From a virus (lineage: Monodnaviria; Loebvirae; Hofneiviricota; Faserviricetes; Tubulavirales; Inoviridae): a stretch of DNA of 6,287 nucleotides. Position 1 is the first letter of the stretch. Each line of letters starts with the position of its first letter. The DNA lies in the IMG/VR virus record IMGVR_UViG_2695420792_000001, positions 1-6,287 of that record. One strand, written 5' to 3'. This document shows, piece after piece, positions 1 through 6,287 of the stretch. Below the pieces are notes generated by a model. That model was given only the letters and a program-made list of their open reading frames with translations. It ran no database searches and was not told where the DNA came from. Made by a program: the position numbers and the translations under genes.

Positions 1-84
1 TTCGGGGGAAAAACGAGTATTTTTAGTCATCCTGTTTACCTCTTTCTCAGGAAGTTTAGTCTCCAGGATTCCCGGGGCGGTTCA
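1..84 (-). mobile_element. Partial IS3-family insertion sequence (IS629/IS1203-like), orfA-proximal terminal inverted repeat end; element body extends leftwards out of the window
   Basis: Bases 1-84 are the exact reverse complement of 5960-6043, which contains the terminal repeat TGAACCGCCCCGGGAATCCTGGAGA and the start of the transposase OrfA ([11 protein letters not shown]...). The element terminus is at position 84 (…TCA on the + strand). Confidence 0.85.
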
Positions 85-118
85 GGTTTCGATATCGATT
101 AAAGGTTCGATTCTGAAA

Positions 119-1048
119 ATGTCGGGAAATCCATCCCGATGGAACAGACTGGACAATTTGTTTGGTCACACTTCTGTTGATGCCTGTGTGCAGGTATACA
201 ACCGGATCCTGAATGACCTTGGTCTGCCGGAATTCACAAAATGTACGAAATTGTGGCAGAGACAGGCAAGTGAAACTGAAAAGGCCGGAACGGTTACTGA
301 TGGCGCATGTATTCGTGAAATTCACATTACATCCAACCGAACAGTCGGAGCAGATAATGTAGATGACTATATATCGGGCCTTTCAACATTACGGTATCGC
401 AATAGTGAGCCGCGATTACACAGCAACGGTAAATCAGTTGACTGGCTATCCAAAAAAGGAAACGCCTTGCTCATTTATCCGACTGTATATAATAAAGCAC
501 ATGAAATTAAGCTTCACTCCCTTAATAAAATAAAGAATAAATTCGGGGATTCATCAGCTGAAGTTTCATACATCAAAAAGATTATTGATTTCTGTCAGGA
601 ACAGGGCGTAGTCAGATTTGAGCAAAAACTTAAATCCCGGTATCTGCAACGTAACCATCTTATTTACTGGGGGCTTTCCGACTATTCAATACTCAATAAT
701 TTACATGATGATTTTTTAGCTCTTGATAAAAAGCTTATGGTGACGTCGATGGATTTTGAAACGATTAGTGAACATTTAATCAGTGAAGGCATTGTTGACT
801 CAACTCGATCAGCGAATACCACTGCGATGTATGCTATCCAGTGGATGCACGGTCACTCATTTGATTTTTCTAAAACACAGGTGCAAACCCATCGTGCCAG
901 GCTTAGAAAAATAGGTATTGACATTGCTCAGCGATGTAATATTTCCAAATTTAGCCCCGTTATTGTTAAGAAAGTGAGAGAAGTATCAGTAAGTGAATGC
1001 TTTATTCCATCATGGTATGTGAAACCACGTTATTTGCATGTTGCATAA
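119..1048 (+). CDS. Replication initiation protein (gene II-like), 5'-truncated by the IS insertion; reading frame is open upstream to the IS junction at 85 and into the IS, so Met119 is not the native start
   Basis: Large ORF immediately upstream of the gene V homologue, as in the Ff gene order. The frame has no stop between position 29 and 1048, so it runs across the IS junction. It contains a Y-x3-Y-x-K motif (IYPTVYNK, nt 476-496) reminiscent of catalytic tyrosine motifs in rolling-circle initiators. No direct sequence alignment is possible from memory. Confidence 0.55.
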   Translation: MSGNPSRWNRLDNLFGHTSVDACVQVYNRILNDLGLPEFTKCTKLWQRQASETEKAGTVTDGACIREIHITSNRTVGADNVDDYISGLSTLRYRNSEPRLHSNGKSVDWLSKKGNALLIYPTVYNKAHEIKLHSLNKIKNKFGDSSAEVSYIKKIIDFCQEQGVVRFEQKLKSRYLQRNHLIYWGLSDYSILNNLHDDFLALDKKLMVTSMDFETISEHLISEGIVDSTRSANTTAMYAIQWMHGHSFDFSKTQVQTHRARLRKIGIDIAQRCNISKFSPVIVKKVREVSVSECFIPSWYVKPRYLHVA

Positions 1049-1060
1049 GAGGATATTTAA

Positions 1061-1348
1061 ATGATTAAGATTGAAATTAAACAGTCTCAGGCCATTGCCG
1101 ATACGCGTTCTGGCGTGTCGAAGTCGACCGGGCAGGCGTATACAATTAATGAGCAGTCTGCATATATTTTTCTTGGCCAGGATTATCCACAACTCTTCAA
1201 GTTGAATCTTGACGCGGGTCAGGCACCATACCCGGCGGGATTATATACATTACATCCATCCAGTATTTACGTCGGTGATTTCCAGAAATTACGGGTAGGA
1301 AGAATCGTTCTGATTCCATATCAGGAAAATAAAGAACAGACTAAATAA
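1061..1348 (+). CDS. ssDNA-binding protein, Ff gene V protein homologue
   Basis: The 95-aa product MIKIEIKQSQA..TRSGVS...YTINEQ..Y..LG..YP.L.K..LD.GQ.PY..GLYT.H.SS..VG.F aligns along most of its length with recalled M13 gVp (MIKVEIKPSQAQFTTRSGVSRQGKPYSLNEQ...GLYTVHLSSFKVGQF). RBS AAGAGGA sits about 8 nt upstream. Confidence 0.9.
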   Translation: MIKIEIKQSQAIADTRSGVSKSTGQAYTINEQSAYIFLGQDYPQLFKLNLDAGQAPYPAGLYTLHPSSIYVGDFQKLRVGRIVLIPYQENKEQTK

Positions 1349-1357
1349 GGTATCGCT

Positions 1358-1576
1358 ATGGCTTCTCAGAATATAATGACTGGTAAGATTTGTGATGGCA
1401 ATACTGAGCAGAACTGCCAGATAATAACATTAAATTCCTCTGAGTTGCCATATCAGCAGCTCCCTCCGGCAGAAGATATTGCACTGGTATGGGGAACTGC
1501 TTTTACCTCTGTAATCGTCCTTTATTTAGTATCACACTGTATTGGACTCGTTTTAAATATGATAAAGAGAGCCTAA
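1358..1576 (+). CDS. Small protein with C-terminal hydrophobic segment, in the position of Ff genes VII/IX (putative minor virion cap protein)
   Basis: 72-aa ORF between the gene V and gene VIII homologues. It has a hydrophilic N-terminal half and one C-terminal hydrophobic helix (ALVWGTAFTSVIVLYLVSHCIGLVL). An AGG motif lies upstream. The call rests on synteny only. Confidence 0.4.
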   Translation: MASQNIMTGKICDGNTEQNCQIITLNSSELPYQQLPPAEDIALVWGTAFTSVIVLYLVSHCIGLVLNMIKRA

Positions 1577-1578
1577 TT

Positions 1579-1800
1579 ATGAAAAAGACCATTTTGAAAT
1601 CAGCTGTTGTTATTGCTTCCGTAGTACCTTTTCTGGCTAATGCAGCAGAGTCTGCCGGAGTGGATTTTACTGCATTGACTAATGCAGTGTCATTCGACAG
1701 TGTAATTGTGGCAATTATGTCCGTAGCCGGCATTTTGGTTGGTCTTTATGCCTCCATTGCCGGGGCAAAAACAGTTCTGCGTATGATCCGTGGGGCCTGA
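1579..1800 (+). CDS. Major coat protein precursor (gene VIII-like), 73 aa
   Basis: MKKTILKSAVVIASVVPFLANA is a signal peptide with an A-x-A cleavage site. The mature part has an acidic N-terminus (AESAGVDF), a hydrophobic core and a basic C-terminus (KTVLRMIRGA). Length equals the 73-aa M13 pVIII precursor. I prefer the ATG at 1579 to the ORF-track start at 1489, which would overlap the preceding gene. Confidence 0.8.
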   Translation: MKKTILKSAVVIASVVPFLANAAESAGVDFTALTNAVSFDSVIVAIMSVAGILVGLYASIAGAKTVLRMIRGA

Positions 1801-1807
1801 TAATACG

Positions 1808-1825
1808 GGCAGGGGAAACCCTGCC
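1808..1825 (+). terminator. Stem-loop downstream of the major coat protein gene (GGCAGGG-GAAA-CCCTGCC), candidate intrinsic terminator
   Basis: A perfect 7-bp GC-rich stem with a GAAA tetraloop begins 8 nt after the gene VIII stop. The downstream T tract is weak (TTCAGGAGTTTCTG). Ff phages carry a terminator at this position between genes VIII and III. Confidence 0.45.
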
Positions 1826-1922
1826 TTCAGGAGTTTCTGTGATATTACATTTCTGGCTAATTACCTGTTTTCTCTGGGGTCTTCTTTGTGCCTGGGCAGT
1901 TATAAAAGGATTAGGAGGGTAA

Positions 1923-3188
1923 ATGAAAACTCTTTTAATTGCATTGTTGTTATCTATCATTAGCTTTTATTCATACAGTGCAGAGAACGCAGCTGTTATT
2001 AATCAGACCATTTCAGGAACCATTAAAAACAAAATTACACAGCGTGGTTTCTCAGCGAATGATCCTCGATACTACGGAACATTAAAAGGTATTTCAGGTT
2101 ATCTAAATTCTACCGCTTCAGGTTCGAAAGCTTATACCGTTGCAGGTGTCTCTGGTCGTTCGTGGTTATCAGTTGGACTCAGAGGGGCTTTGTTAAGCCG
2201 CGGTACGCTTATAGCTCTTGCCGCTTCCGGTGCGGTGGCATGGCTAATTGAGACTGAGGACTCCGTACAAATCAAAGTAAAAGAAATAACGGGAGAGCAG
2301 GGTGTTAAAGGGTTTTACTGGAATATTGGCGCAGAAAGCTATGTTACAGCAACTGAGGGAGCTCAGTCGATATGCCAGCATAATCCGGCGTTCTGTCAGA
2401 CATACATAGTTGAGCAATATAATGCAGACCCGACAAGGTCTGATTTAAGAACCATCAAATTTTATATTGATTCATCTAAAACACAGCTTTGGGCATCACG
2501 AACTGCAAACCTTGTTTCCTGCGGTACAAATAAGGTTATGCCTACATGTCAGCCTGATTATGTGCCGGGTAGTAATGAAGTAATTAAAACCGTTAGCGTA
2601 CAGGATGCTATTAATAGCATTTCAGATACGGAAATGCAGACAGATCTTTCGCCAGAAGTTATTTCTGATGTTGTAAATAATGCATGGCAAAAAGCAGCCT
2701 CCGAAGCAGGGTATTCTGGTTTTGCATACGACCACACCAGACCAGTGACAGCGCGTGATGTAACTGCTTCAACTGGTGCTGCAAAGCCCGCTGTATCTGA
2801 CTTTCTCAAACCGTCAGACAAACCCGATTTTACACTACCTGCTGACACAACAGGGACAACACCAACCAATCCATCGACAGGAGAACAGGTTAATCTTGGT
2901 GATGATCCTGGTATTGGGCCGCCTGAACTGGAAAATATACCTGCAGGTACTGAAATTTTATCTCCATTATTATCATTCAACCCCTTTGAAGATTCAGCCG
3001 ATGCACTTAATGCAGAAAGCGAAAGAATTAAATATGCGGAGTGTCCAAAACCTGTACTGGATGTTTTTAACGGACAATATAAGTTAGAAACACATTGTAC
3101 ATTATTAAATAATAACGCTGCGATGATTGGTGTTATTTTTCTGTTCATTTACTCAATAGCAGCGTTCAGAATTATCCTTTCTGCATAA
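1923..3188 (+). CDS. Adsorption/minor coat protein (gene III-like), 421 aa
   Basis: Strong RBS AGGAGG about 5 nt upstream. The signal peptide MKTLLIALLLSIISFYSYSAE resembles the recalled M13 pIII leader (MKKLLFAIPLVVPFYSHSAE). The C-terminus has two Cys (ECPKP...THCTLL) followed by a membrane anchor (AAMIGVIFLFIYSIAAFRIIL), as in M13 pIII. A Pro/Thr/Gly-rich linker lies in the middle. Size matches pIII (424 aa). Confidence 0.85.
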   Translation: MKTLLIALLLSIISFYSYSAENAAVINQTISGTIKNKITQRGFSANDPRYYGTLKGISGYLNSTASGSKAYTVAGVSGRSWLSVGLRGALLSRGTLIALAASGAVAWLIETEDSVQIKVKEITGEQGVKGFYWNIGAESYVTATEGAQSICQHNPAFCQTYIVEQYNADPTRSDLRTIKFYIDSSKTQLWASRTANLVSCGTNKVMPTCQPDYVPGSNEVIKTVSVQDAINSISDTEMQTDLSPEVISDVVNNAWQKAASEAGYSGFAYDHTRPVTARDVTASTGAAKPAVSDFLKPSDKPDFTLPADTTGTTPTNPSTGEQVNLGDDPGIGPPELENIPAGTEILSPLLSFNPFEDSADALNAESERIKYAECPKPVLDVFNGQYKLETHCTLLNNNAAMIGVIFLFIYSIAAFRIILSA

Positions 3189-3197
3189 AGGTGATTT

Positions 3198-3485
3198 ATG
3201 TTTGGCATCATGACCTCTGTTTTATATGGCGTTCTTGGGTTTTTATTGCGCTCAGTTATTGTGAAGTTTACGGTGTTTTTTGCATTGTATTTTATTGTGC
3301 AGGAATTCGTGCCGCTTATTCTCGATATGGTTAATCGCCAACTCCCACTTCTTGCGTTAATTTCAAGTATTCCAGATAGCCTGAAATATTTCTTCTCTGT
3401 TTTTAAAGTTATAGATGGGATTAACATAATACTTTCAGCTTTTGTGACTCGCTTTATTATTCGTCGAATTCCGGTAATAGGATAA
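3198..3485 (+). CDS. Minor coat protein (gene VI-like), hydrophobic 95 aa
   Basis: Highly hydrophobic small protein immediately after gene III and before gene I, matching Ff synteny. RBS AAGGTGA upstream. Confidence 0.7.
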   Translation: MFGIMTSVLYGVLGFLLRSVIVKFTVFFALYFIVQEFVPLILDMVNRQLPLLALISSIPDSLKYFFSVFKVIDGINIILSAFVTRFIIRRIPVIG

Positions 3486-3489
3486 TTTT

Positions 3490-4515
3490 ATGGCTGTATC
3501 ATTGTATATGGGTGTGATGGGGAGCGGTAAAACATACGAGGTTGTTTACAGTGTTATTATCCCTGCGGTTTCAGCAGGCCGCCGTGTAATCACCAATATC
3601 AAAGGGATAAATGAAGAGAAAATACATGAGTATTGTCGTTCTAAATTCAAGACTAAGCAGCCTGGTCGTGTTGTTTTCGCATCGACGGATGAAATATTAA
3701 AGGATGATTTCTTCCCTTTTTACTCTGATGATGAATCTTCAGAACAAAAAGCAGCATTTTGTGAATATGGTGATCTGATTTGTCTTGATGAATTATGGTC
3801 AATATGGCCATCGGACTCAAAACTATCTGAGGCACATAAAAGATTTATTTCAATGCACCGTCATATGACACATGCTGTTAGTGGGGTATCATGTGATTTG
3901 GTCATCATCAATCAGGGTGTAGATGGTGTACCCCGGTATCTTAAAGAGCGTATTGAATCGACATACCGGATGACCAAACTAAAATCTTTGGGGCTATCAA
4001 AGTCATATCGTGTCGATGTTTTTTCTGGTGCCAAAGTATTCAAAAATAATAAAGTCAGTACTCGTAACTATCAGTACAAAAAAGCCGTTTTTGAATTATA
4101 CAAATCTTATGAAACCACTAACGGAATGGAAGCGACAACAGACTCTAGACAAAACGTTTTTTCATCCGCCTTTCTTTGGGTGAAAATTGCATTTTTATTA
4201 TTTATTGTACTGGCTTCTATATATTCAATAAGAACGGTCTGGGTGGATATTAGAGGAGAGTCAGTACCAGAGCCGAAACATACCGAACCGGAGGTTGTAC
4301 TGCCTTCATCAGAAAAGATTGCGAAACCTGATGCCCCGTACTCAAAGCGCTGGCGTATTGCCGGGGAGTTAAAATCAGATTATGTCAGCAAGGTTGTTCT
4401 TACAGACAGCAATGGTCGGTTTAGAACGCTACCGGCAAATCAGTTCGACGGAGAAGGTTTTACTTTAAGTGGAATCATTGATGGTGAAATTGTCACCTAT
4501 TTTACTGGGGGTTAA
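3490..4515 (+). CDS. Phage assembly protein pI (Zot-family P-loop NTPase), 341 aa
   Basis: The N-terminus MAVSLYMGVMGSGKTYEVV carries a Walker A motif (GxxGSGKT) and resembles recalled M13 pI (MAVYFVTGKLGSGKT). A single transmembrane helix (FLWVKIAFLLFIVLASIYSI) lies about two thirds along the protein. It sits directly upstream of the secretin gene. Confidence 0.9.
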   Translation: MAVSLYMGVMGSGKTYEVVYSVIIPAVSAGRRVITNIKGINEEKIHEYCRSKFKTKQPGRVVFASTDEILKDDFFPFYSDDESSEQKAAFCEYGDLICLDELWSIWPSDSKLSEAHKRFISMHRHMTHAVSGVSCDLVIINQGVDGVPRYLKERIESTYRMTKLKSLGLSKSYRVDVFSGAKVFKNNKVSTRNYQYKKAVFELYKSYETTNGMEATTDSRQNVFSSAFLWVKIAFLLFIVLASIYSIRTVWVDIRGESVPEPKHTEPEVVLPSSEKIAKPDAPYSKRWRIAGELKSDYVSKVVLTDSNGRFRTLPANQFDGEGFTLSGIIDGEIVTYFTGG

Positions 4516-4516
4516 T

Positions 4517-5728
4517 ATGAAATTATTTTATATCATAATAATGGTATTTATGATTCCACCTGCATTATCAAAAGGCGTTATACTGAATCTCTCAGGATTA
4601 ACGCTTAATGATGCCATTACTTTGTTTTATACTGAAGTTATGAGAAAACCGTTCATGGTTTCTCCTGAACTTATCACGGACAAACGACAAGTTAATTTCA
4701 ATATTACGCCAGATATGGATGAGTATACGTTTATTATGCGTTATCTCCAGAATGCCGGAGTCTCTGTAGCCAGAAAAAATGGTGTGGATTACTTTTATCT
4801 CCAGGAGAAAAAAGTATACGAAGCCCCGAAATATTCTTTTGTTTACACACCACAGTACCGTTCTGTTGCTTATCTGGCTGATATTCTTCAGTCACAAGTG
4901 AGCGGGTCATTTTCAAATGGTGGGCAAATAGGGCATGGCGATGTTTCTCCTGCGATGATTAAAGACAATACCGCATCCGATTTTTTGAGCAGAAATGGGG
5001 ATGTACTTGTTTTTTACGGTACGAAAAAAGACATTCAGCGGGTCGAAGATTTGCTTCCTCTTATCGACCGGGCCGCCGAAGAAGTTATTGTCGCCGGGTA
5101 CGTGTTTGAGGTTCAGACGTCTGAGCGAAATGGTTCTGGCCTGGCACTGGCTGCCAAACTTATGTCGGGAAAATTCACAATAGAAACGGGTACTGCACAA
5201 GGACTCAGCAACTTTGTCCGTTTCAGTTCTGGATCGCTCGATGCACTTTATGAGTTGTTCAGAACAGACAGCCGTTTTCACGTCGTCAGTTCGCCACAAT
5301 TGCGGGTCAGAAATGGCTCTAAAGCATCATTTTCTGTGGGATCTGACGTGCCGGTACTCGGTCAGGTCAGCTATGTTGATGGTCGTCCGGTTCAGTCCAT
5401 TGATTATCGTTCAAGTGGCGTAATTTTTAACGTTCAGCCGCAAATCCGGGCTGCTACGATTGACCTTAATATTCATCAGCAACTGTCTAATTTTGCAAAA
5501 ACAGAGACTGGGGTGAATAACAGCCCGACGCTCATTAAACGGGAGGTGAACACCGATGTTTCGCTCAAGGATGGCGACATAATTTTACTTGGTGGTCTGG
5601 CTGAGAATAAAGACAGTAATGCAGATACGGGCCTGTCATTTTTGCCGTCATGGTTCGGAACAACGGCAACTGAAAAAGCAAAAACAGACATCATTATTGT
5701 ACTTCAGGCCAGAAAAATCAGGCGGTGA
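4517..5728 (+). CDS. Secretin, phage pIV-like outer-membrane export channel, about 403 aa
   Basis: Signal peptide MKLFYIIIMVFMIPPALS. The C-terminal secretin-type region (VSLKDGDIILLGGLAENKDSNADTGLSFLPSWFG) resembles the recalled pIV C-terminus (…MDGQPLLLGGL…GVPFLSKIP…). I chose the start at 4517 because it follows the gene I stop (4513-4515) and a GGGGG RBS; the ORF-track start at 4469 would lie inside gene I. Confidence 0.88.
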   Translation: MKLFYIIIMVFMIPPALSKGVILNLSGLTLNDAITLFYTEVMRKPFMVSPELITDKRQVNFNITPDMDEYTFIMRYLQNAGVSVARKNGVDYFYLQEKKVYEAPKYSFVYTPQYRSVAYLADILQSQVSGSFSNGGQIGHGDVSPAMIKDNTASDFLSRNGDVLVFYGTKKDIQRVEDLLPLIDRAAEEVIVAGYVFEVQTSERNGSGLALAAKLMSGKFTIETGTAQGLSNFVRFSSGSLDALYELFRTDSRFHVVSSPQLRVRNGSKASFSVGSDVPVLGQVSYVDGRPVQSIDYRSSGVIFNVQPQIRAATIDLNIHQQLSNFAKTETGVNNSPTLIKREVNTDVSLKDGDIILLGGLAENKDSNADTGLSFLPSWFGTTATEKAKTDIIIVLQARKIRR

Positions 5729-5959
5729 GAGCAGGGCGGCCAGCCCCGCAGCTCCGTGAGGAGCTGGCCGTACTGAGACACCGACTGTTGATTGATTGTG
5801 TAAATCATGAACGGCGTGATTTGCGCATGCGCAAATTTCTCGTCAATTCTTATGGGGAATCTATGGCTACAAAGTTGAAGTTTATCCGACTGAAAATTGA
5901 AGATGAGTTAATCCAGCCGGTTAATAATCTGGCAGGCATTCGCGATGAGTTAAAGGCCG
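5729..5959 (+). promoter_or_regulatory. Remnant of the phage intergenic region, truncated at 5959/5960 by the IS insertion; contains a GC-rich dyad and a perfect 18-bp palindrome
   Basis: Located after the gene IV stop, where Ff phages carry a terminator, the packaging signal and the origins. Hairpin CAGCTCC-GTGA-GGAGCTG at 5749-5766, or the alternative CGGCCAGC/GCTGGCCG pairing at 5737-5770. Perfect palindrome ATTTGCGCATGCGCAAAT at 5819-5836. Confidence 0.5.
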
Positions 5960-6287
5960 TGAACCGCCCCGGGAATCCTGGAGACTAAACTTCCTGAGAA
6001 AGAGGTAAACAGGATGACTAAAAATACTCGTTTTTCCCCCGAAGTCCGTCAACGGGCAGTCCGTATGGTTCTGGAAAGTCAGGATGAATATGACTCACAG
6101 TGGGCGGCAATTTGTTCCATTGCCCCAAAGATTGGCTGTACGCCGGAGACTCTGCGTGTCTGGGTTCGCCAGCATGAGCGGGATACCGGGGCGGTGATGG
6201 TGGGCTCACCAGCGCTGAACGTCAGCGTCTGAAAGAGCTGGAACGTGAAAATCGTGAACTGCGCCGCAGTAACGATATCCTTCGCCA
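5960..6287 (+). mobile_element. Partial IS3-family insertion sequence (IS629/IS1203-like), orfA-proximal end; element continues beyond the window
   Basis: Terminal repeat starts TGAACCGCCCCGGG at 5960. OrfA begins at 6014 with [23 protein letters not shown]…[18 protein letters not shown], which matches my recollection of IS629 OrfA. Identical over 84 bp to the inverted copy at 1-84. Confidence 0.9.
6014..6232 (+). CDS. IS3-family transposase OrfA (helix-turn-helix N-terminal part); frame is interrupted before the leucine-zipper segment, which continues in the -1 frame from 6178 to the window end
   Basis: The ORF encodes the HTH-like N-terminus and stops at 6230-6232. The leucine-zipper-like sequence [19 protein letters not shown] is read in the -1 frame from 6229 onward. 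The two frames overlap at 6178-6232, around a G4 run at 6188-6191. Confidence 0.7.

Follow-up and report, generated by a model that had tools for sequence, protein, structure and literature searches.

Does a filamentous prophage of Escherichia coli make its morphogenesis ATPase in two forms, as Ff-type coliphages such as M13, f1 and fd do when an internal in-frame start in gene I gives rise to the shorter protein pXI beside full-length pI? The question is raised by a 6,287-nucleotide stretch of inovirus DNA (IMG/VR virus record IMGVR_UViG_2695420792_000001, positions 1 to 6,287; hereafter the window), in which gene I occupies positions 3490–4515. Within this gene an in-frame ATG at 4126 (Met213) lies just before the segment encoding a transmembrane (TM) helix, and a first-pass annotation proposed it as a possible internal start of the pXI type. 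We conclude that ATG4126 is very probably an ordinary, lineage-specific methionine codon and not a pXI-like start, and that gene I is an ordinary Zot-family pI. The features of gene I to which the argument refers are as follows.

3490–4515, plus strand: gene I, encoding a Zot/pI-family morphogenesis ATPase of 341 amino acids (ATG 3490 to TAA 4515)
Residues 1–205, plus strand: P-loop ATPase domain in the AlphaFold model
3511–3534, plus strand: Walker A motif (P-loop) GVMGSGKT, residues 8–15, located in the sequence by the pattern GxxxxGK[ST]
3775–3792, plus strand: Walker B motif LICLDE, residues 96–101, pattern hhhhDE
4105–4167, plus strand: cytoplasmic linker from ATPase domain to TM helix, residues 206–226, coil in the AlphaFold model
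4126–4128, plus strand: in-frame ATG encoding Met213, suggested as an internal start but most likely an ordinary methionine codon
4168–4254, plus strand: single TM helix, residues 227–255 with hydrophobic core 228–246, AlphaFold confidence (pLDDT) >90
4261–4317, plus strand: low-confidence periplasmic linker, residues 258–276, pLDDT <50
4342–4494, plus strand: conserved periplasmic beta domain, residues 285–335, five strands in the AlphaFold model

The in-frame ATG and the gene XI starts of Ff-type phages

The ATG is present as described, in frame and just upstream of the TM helix. It stands in the context ACC ACT AAC GGA ATG GAA GCG (TTNGMEATTD), it is the sole in-frame ATG, GTG or TTG of gene I between TTG167 and the TM helix, and translation from it would yield a product of 129 amino acids. 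That the linker contains an ATG does not exceed chance expectation: at the family background of 0.017 ATG per codon, the chance of finding at least one in a 30-codon linker is about 0.40.

How, then, does a genuine gene XI start look? The starts of M13, If1, IKe and I2-2 were taken as a positive control. In all four phages the ATG precedes the TM helix by exactly 13 codons, the pairing of the Shine-Dalgarno (SD) sequence has a free energy (dG) of −3.6 to −6.3 kcal/mol, the N-terminal segment of pXI carries a net charge of +5 (MKLTKIYLKKFSR and similar), and the mRNA around the start is weakly structured (4th–13th percentile of the gene). At ATG4126 no SD was found: the pairing dG is +0.4 kcal/mol over positions −20 to −4, whereas the seven genuine gene starts of the window range from −2.9 to −10.4. 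Inclusion of the GGA immediately before the ATG brings the value only to −2.6, which equals the median of in-frame codons. The would-be N-terminal flank from Met213, MEATTDSRQNVFSS, is acidic, with a net charge of −1. The window thus has only the geometry and the weak local RNA structure in common with the control, whereas the SD, the conservation in four of four phages and the basic segment of charge +5 that mark the Ff internal starts are all absent from ATG4126.

Met213 among relatives and the alternatives to an ordinary codon

Conservation was assessed in 75 non-redundant gene I relatives, with ATG, GTG and TTG counted as in-frame starts. The column of Met213 is occupied mostly by lysine (31 relatives), followed by asparagine (12), glutamine (7), serine (7) and methionine (5), and the enterobacterial relatives have N, R, K, T, S or Q there. 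Among the three nearest relatives, Kluyvera (70% identity) has AGA (R) at the equivalent place, a relative of 56% identity has ACT (T) and Yersinia enterocolitica (53%) has AAA (K), and none of the three has an in-frame ATG, GTG or TTG from about residue 165 to the TM helix. The linker of the Yersinia pestis prophage gene also contains no start codon. No in-frame start occurs in the 30 codons preceding the TM helix in 36 of the 75 relatives, as compared with 19% expected by chance; an ATG occurs in these codons in 10 relatives, and an ATG accompanied by an SD in five. Upstream of ATG4126 itself, a synonymous C/T polymorphism at 4116 (Thr210, ACC/ACT; 10 nucleotides 5′ of the ATG) among near-identical E. 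coli copies suggests that the sequence at this distance is not constrained.

Is a start in the linker selected across the family? In many relatives an SD-like stretch (median dG about −6) lies just before columns 212–216, and in 20 of the 75 a GTG or ATG comes just after it. This stretch coincides with the glycine codons of a conserved G-G-x-G (G-G-x-G-x-E) linker motif at columns 209–217, a motif that the window protein does not have; E-T-T-N-G stands there instead. A family-wide start at columns 212–216 was rejected because GTG use at the two linker valine columns gives z = +2.0 and −0.9, because glycine codon choice in the motif shows only a mild GGG excess at one column, and because a larger hotspot of start plus SD is found at residue 137, within the ATPase fold. 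We read the SD-like stretch in relatives as a by-product of the protein sequence.

When position before the TM helix, SD, conservation and basic segment are considered together, ATG4126 shares with gene XI starts only the first. The proposal of a pXI-type internal start is therefore unsupported, since no SD precedes the codon, Met213 is not conserved, half of the family is startless in this region and no basic segment follows.

Several observations pull the other way, and all of them would suit a functional, SD-independent start that is recent in the E. coli lineage and whose product (residues 213–341) co-assembles with pI as in Ff. ATG4126 sits 14 codons before the TM helix, a geometry resembling the 13 codons of Ff-type phages. 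The RNA near it is weakly structured over 60 nucleotides (ensemble dG −3.4, 2nd percentile of the gene), and initiation without an SD could occur there for this reason. Each of the 11 E. coli copies examined retains the codon, and an internal start in gene I has been ascribed to "most filamentous phages" (PMC5408679). How much do these points weigh? Retention in the 11 copies carries no weight because they differ by only 2–8 nucleotides. RNA accessibility was discarded as support since the gene of the Kluyvera relative has just as little structure at this place without having a start codon, and since the family shows no signal, the position of Met213 lying at a median 46th percentile. Folding of 4076–4175 in the window gave no significant structure (z = 0.62). 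According to a Cupriavidus prophage paper (PMC10011098), conservation of pXI is not universal, and a CTXphi Zot preprint (bioRxiv 10.1101/2022.09.21.508815) describes both where gene 11 of CTXphi starts and what it does as unclear. The present counts for the Zot clade agree with these two reports and are at odds with the remark on most filamentous phages. With no SD at usable spacing, a codon that the three nearest relatives and most family members lack, an acidic instead of a basic flank and an ATG that chance alone could readily supply, we regard an SD-independent start at ATG4126 as unlikely. Slightly less probable again is its stronger form, in which a recently acquired start at Met213 has given this lineage a 129-residue pXI-like subunit of its own, independent of Ff gene XI. 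If this were true, two-subunit pI/pXI motors would have arisen on more than one occasion, and most chromosomally integrating inoviruses would be able to do without pXI, with about half of the wider Zot clade unable to make it.

A shorter C-terminal form might also arise in another way, either from a start farther upstream, such as Met161 in the motif RMTKLK, or by proteolytic cleavage of pI. Cleavage of the full-length protein has been reported for CTXphi Zot. Met161 is conserved in near relatives, and the equivalent ATG165 of Y. enterocolitica has an SD of −5.6. In the window, however, the corresponding value is +0.4, that is, no SD; no hotspot of start plus SD appears at this column family-wide; and the conservation of Met161 is explained by the protein, because the residue lies within a strand of the ATPase fold (155–163). 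Met161 was rejected as an alternative start for the lack of an SD and for this location, and we hold the whole explanation to be very improbable. With ATG4126 taken as an ordinary methionine codon, full-length pI is probably the only form with which this phage lineage assembles, unless a shorter one is produced otherwise.

The gene I product as a Zot-family protein

The open reading frame (ORF) 3490–4515 is an intact, ordinary gene I (pI, Zot family) of an E. coli inovirus prophage. Its assignment as a Zot/pI ATPase, made in the first-pass annotation and borne out here, follows from the agreement of Pfam, profile and fold matches and the neighbouring genes VI and IV. Residues 2–209 match PF05707 (Zot) with E 1.7e-25 and a score of 90.1 bits against a curated cut-off of 20.3, covering profile positions 1–195 of 197. 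A profile built from 41 gene I homologues (alignment A1) matches PDB entry 2r2a with E 5.5e-9, and the same entry is the top PDB match of the AlphaFold model of the protein (mean pLDDT 88.9; Foldseek E 1.6e-9), with RecA-like and viral genome-packaging ATPases ranking next. The structure 2r2a, the N-terminal Zot domain of a Neisseria meningitidis protein, is the best solved-structure match by both profile and fold at about 19% identity; unlike the window protein, the solved fragment has neither TM helix nor periplasmic domain. RefSeq already annotates identical proteins: the window protein has no amino-acid difference from the intact-prophage copy WP_032253740.1, labelled "zonular occludens toxin domain-containing protein", and is 100% identical to cluster P0001 (101 member sequences).

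The architecture is that of an Ff pI, with an N-terminal ATPase domain bearing Walker A and B, one TM helix and a C-terminal domain in the periplasm; the Walker A box and the single TM helix are both present, as had been stated. Among the 41 homologues, G13, K14, D100 and E101 are invariant. D100 and E101 correspond to D88 and E89 of M13 gp1, which are essential, as are the two Walker motifs, A and B (Loh et al., PMC5408679). The invariant columns also include S206, D218 and R220 of the cytoplasmic linker. The hydropathy of the protein (Kyte-Doolittle) reaches its maximum of 2.38 at residues 223–241. Beyond the membrane, the linker of residues 258–276 varies in length and sequence among the homologues; in the beta domain S285, W288, G292, R312, F319, G323, G328, D331 and G332 are near-invariant, and this domain is presumed, by analogy, to contact the secretin. 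On the model of Ff pI, the protein would multimerise in the inner membrane, its periplasmic domain would dock on the pIV secretin, and ATP hydrolysis would drive extrusion of the coated single-stranded DNA.

How close is it to known proteins? Gene I has the same position as in Ff (genes VI, I, IV) and a similar length (341 amino acids against 348–365 for Ff-type pI), and only around the P-loop is it similar in sequence to M13 pI (BLASTP E 0.004 over 37 residues). Homology to the Kluyvera protein, at 70% identity, is full-length, and so is that, at 42% identity, to the gene I protein of a Yersinia pestis prophage present in tandem repeat (L007/L008), which we take to be YpfPhi. The linker motif LYxSY…ExxxDxRQ and the periplasmic domain are common to the window protein and those of Kluyvera, Y. 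enterocolitica, Pectobacterium, Klebsiella and Y. pestis. In the phage collection, the best protein matches to gene I are human-gut and lemur inoviruses at 41% identity, the nearest cultured phage is no closer than 41% protein identity, and a DNA search of the collection for a near-identical match found none.

The name of the family recalls a toxin, and the first-pass annotation alluded to the CTXphi member as an enterotoxin. Window gene I and CTXphi Zot belong to the same Pfam family and are homologous in the N-terminal ATPase domain and the TM region, with 24% identity over residues 1–268 (BLASTP E 2e-15). The alignment stops at window residue 268 and CTXphi Zot residue 267, and nothing significant was found beyond. 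CTXphi Zot has 399 amino acids, and its C-terminal part, without counterpart in the window protein, holds the enterotoxic activity. Because this part is absent, there is no sequence basis for toxin activity in window gene I.

The prophage piece and what gene I may still do

Could gene I still act where it now lies? The first-pass annotation called the element a replication-defective prophage and suggested that intact pI/pXI and pIV could still form an export channel. The neighbouring features that bear on this are the following.

1–84, minus strand: end of an insertion sequence (IS) of the IS3 family, left boundary; an 84-nucleotide arm, 100% complementary to 5960–6043
83–1048, plus strand: gene II replication protein, first 50 codons missing; Pfam G2P C-terminal domain complete, N-terminal domain partial
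3198–3485, plus strand: gene VI-like minor coat protein (DUF2523; PF10734, E 1.5e-13), directly 5′ of gene I
4517–5728, plus strand: gene IV secretin (Pfam Secretin, E 7e-25), beginning 2 nucleotides past the gene I stop
5960–6287, plus strand: IS3-family element (end and orfA start), right boundary; 99.7% identical to E. coli copies annotated as IS3 family transposase

The gene order in the window is truncated gene II, gene V (Phage_DNA_bind), small membrane ORFs, gene VIII-like, gene III-like, gene VI, gene I and gene IV, the last with a strong SD at its start (dG −9.6). Positions 82–5959 align without gaps, at 99.6–99.85% identity, to the internal part of a prophage of about 9 kb adjacent to hipBA. 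Nine of 5426 complete E. coli genomes carry this prophage, as do many draft assemblies; strains 6EVA and PCP06021 are examples with the intact form. Some copies are arranged in tandem, and in E. coli PCP06021 the array has a 9-kb period (locus 6001–17878). The integration beside hipBA and the capacity to form tandem arrays resemble those of chromosomally integrating inoviruses. The site of the intact prophage is presumably the region of the chromosomal terminus or dif.

In the window this prophage piece is bracketed by two inverted IS3-family ends, with arms at 1–84 and 5960–6043, a form that none of the 5426 complete E. coli genomes showed. Nucleotide 150 of the 371-codon gene II of intact prophages corresponds to window position 82; the IS insertions removed the first 50 codons of gene II, all sequence upstream of gene II and the 3′ end of an ORF after gene IV. 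The element is reasonably called replication-defective, as had been claimed, because gene II has lost its 5′ end and the upstream region is gone.

The export channel is a more divided matter. Genes I and IV are intact, and in this respect the suggestion stands; the loss of the gene II 5′ end and of everything upstream to the IS elements tells against it. It is quite conceivable, if rather doubtful, that gene I is merely intact but silent cargo of an IS-flanked remnant, in which genes I and IV are not expressed and will decay, so that no export channel is formed. The bounding IS arms, the missing gene II codons and the lost upstream region, which in intact copies contains a divergent helix-turn-helix (HTH)-domain gene, would fit such a fate, and so would the number of promoter-like matches in the window, 15 against 15.3 expected in shuffled sequence, that is, no excess. 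On the other side, the ORFs from gene V through gene IV all keep full length and have no gaps relative to the intact copies, which implies either that the truncation is recent or that the genes are still under selection, and internal promoters or outward promoters borne by the IS elements might serve them.

Some further details of the locus may be recorded. The gene II ORF as listed opens at an internal ATG (119). In intact prophages a divergent HTH-domain gene and a 358-amino-acid ORF lie 5′ of gene II, and a HigA-like antitoxin ORF lies 3′ of gene IV. The ORF 3′ of gene IV in the window (5725–5988) overlaps the gene IV stop, is cut at its 3′ end by the IS, has no Pfam match, and is called as 104 or 150 amino acids in intact prophages. 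Both IS ends, which carry the orfA start, point inward. The right-hand IS copy is 328 nucleotides long, against 329 in the best E. coli copies; its orfA ends at 6232 after 72 amino acids, and the copy may be frameshifted. The element may resemble IS629/IS1203. A G+C-rich hairpin at 1808–1825 (GGCAGGG GAAA CCCTGCC) lies after the gene VIII-like coat gene and before gene III, at the position where a terminator is located in Ff phages; a clean T-run is missing, and the hairpin was not called by a terminator scan of the window, in which counts equalled those of shuffled sequence.

What do these results mean beyond this locus? For the window itself they have little consequence: gene I is a standard, annotated Zot-family ATPase, and the proposed second product is unsupported. 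The annotation "Zot" is a poor ground for assuming toxin potential, because the window protein lacks any equivalent of the C-terminal part of CTXphi Zot. In the Zot clade of Enterobacteria, Pasteurellaceae and Betaproteobacteria, about half of the members are without an in-frame start between the ATPase domain and the TM helix; for this reason the Ff two-protein model of pI and pXI, together with the statement on most filamentous phages, is not transferable to these prophages without experiment.
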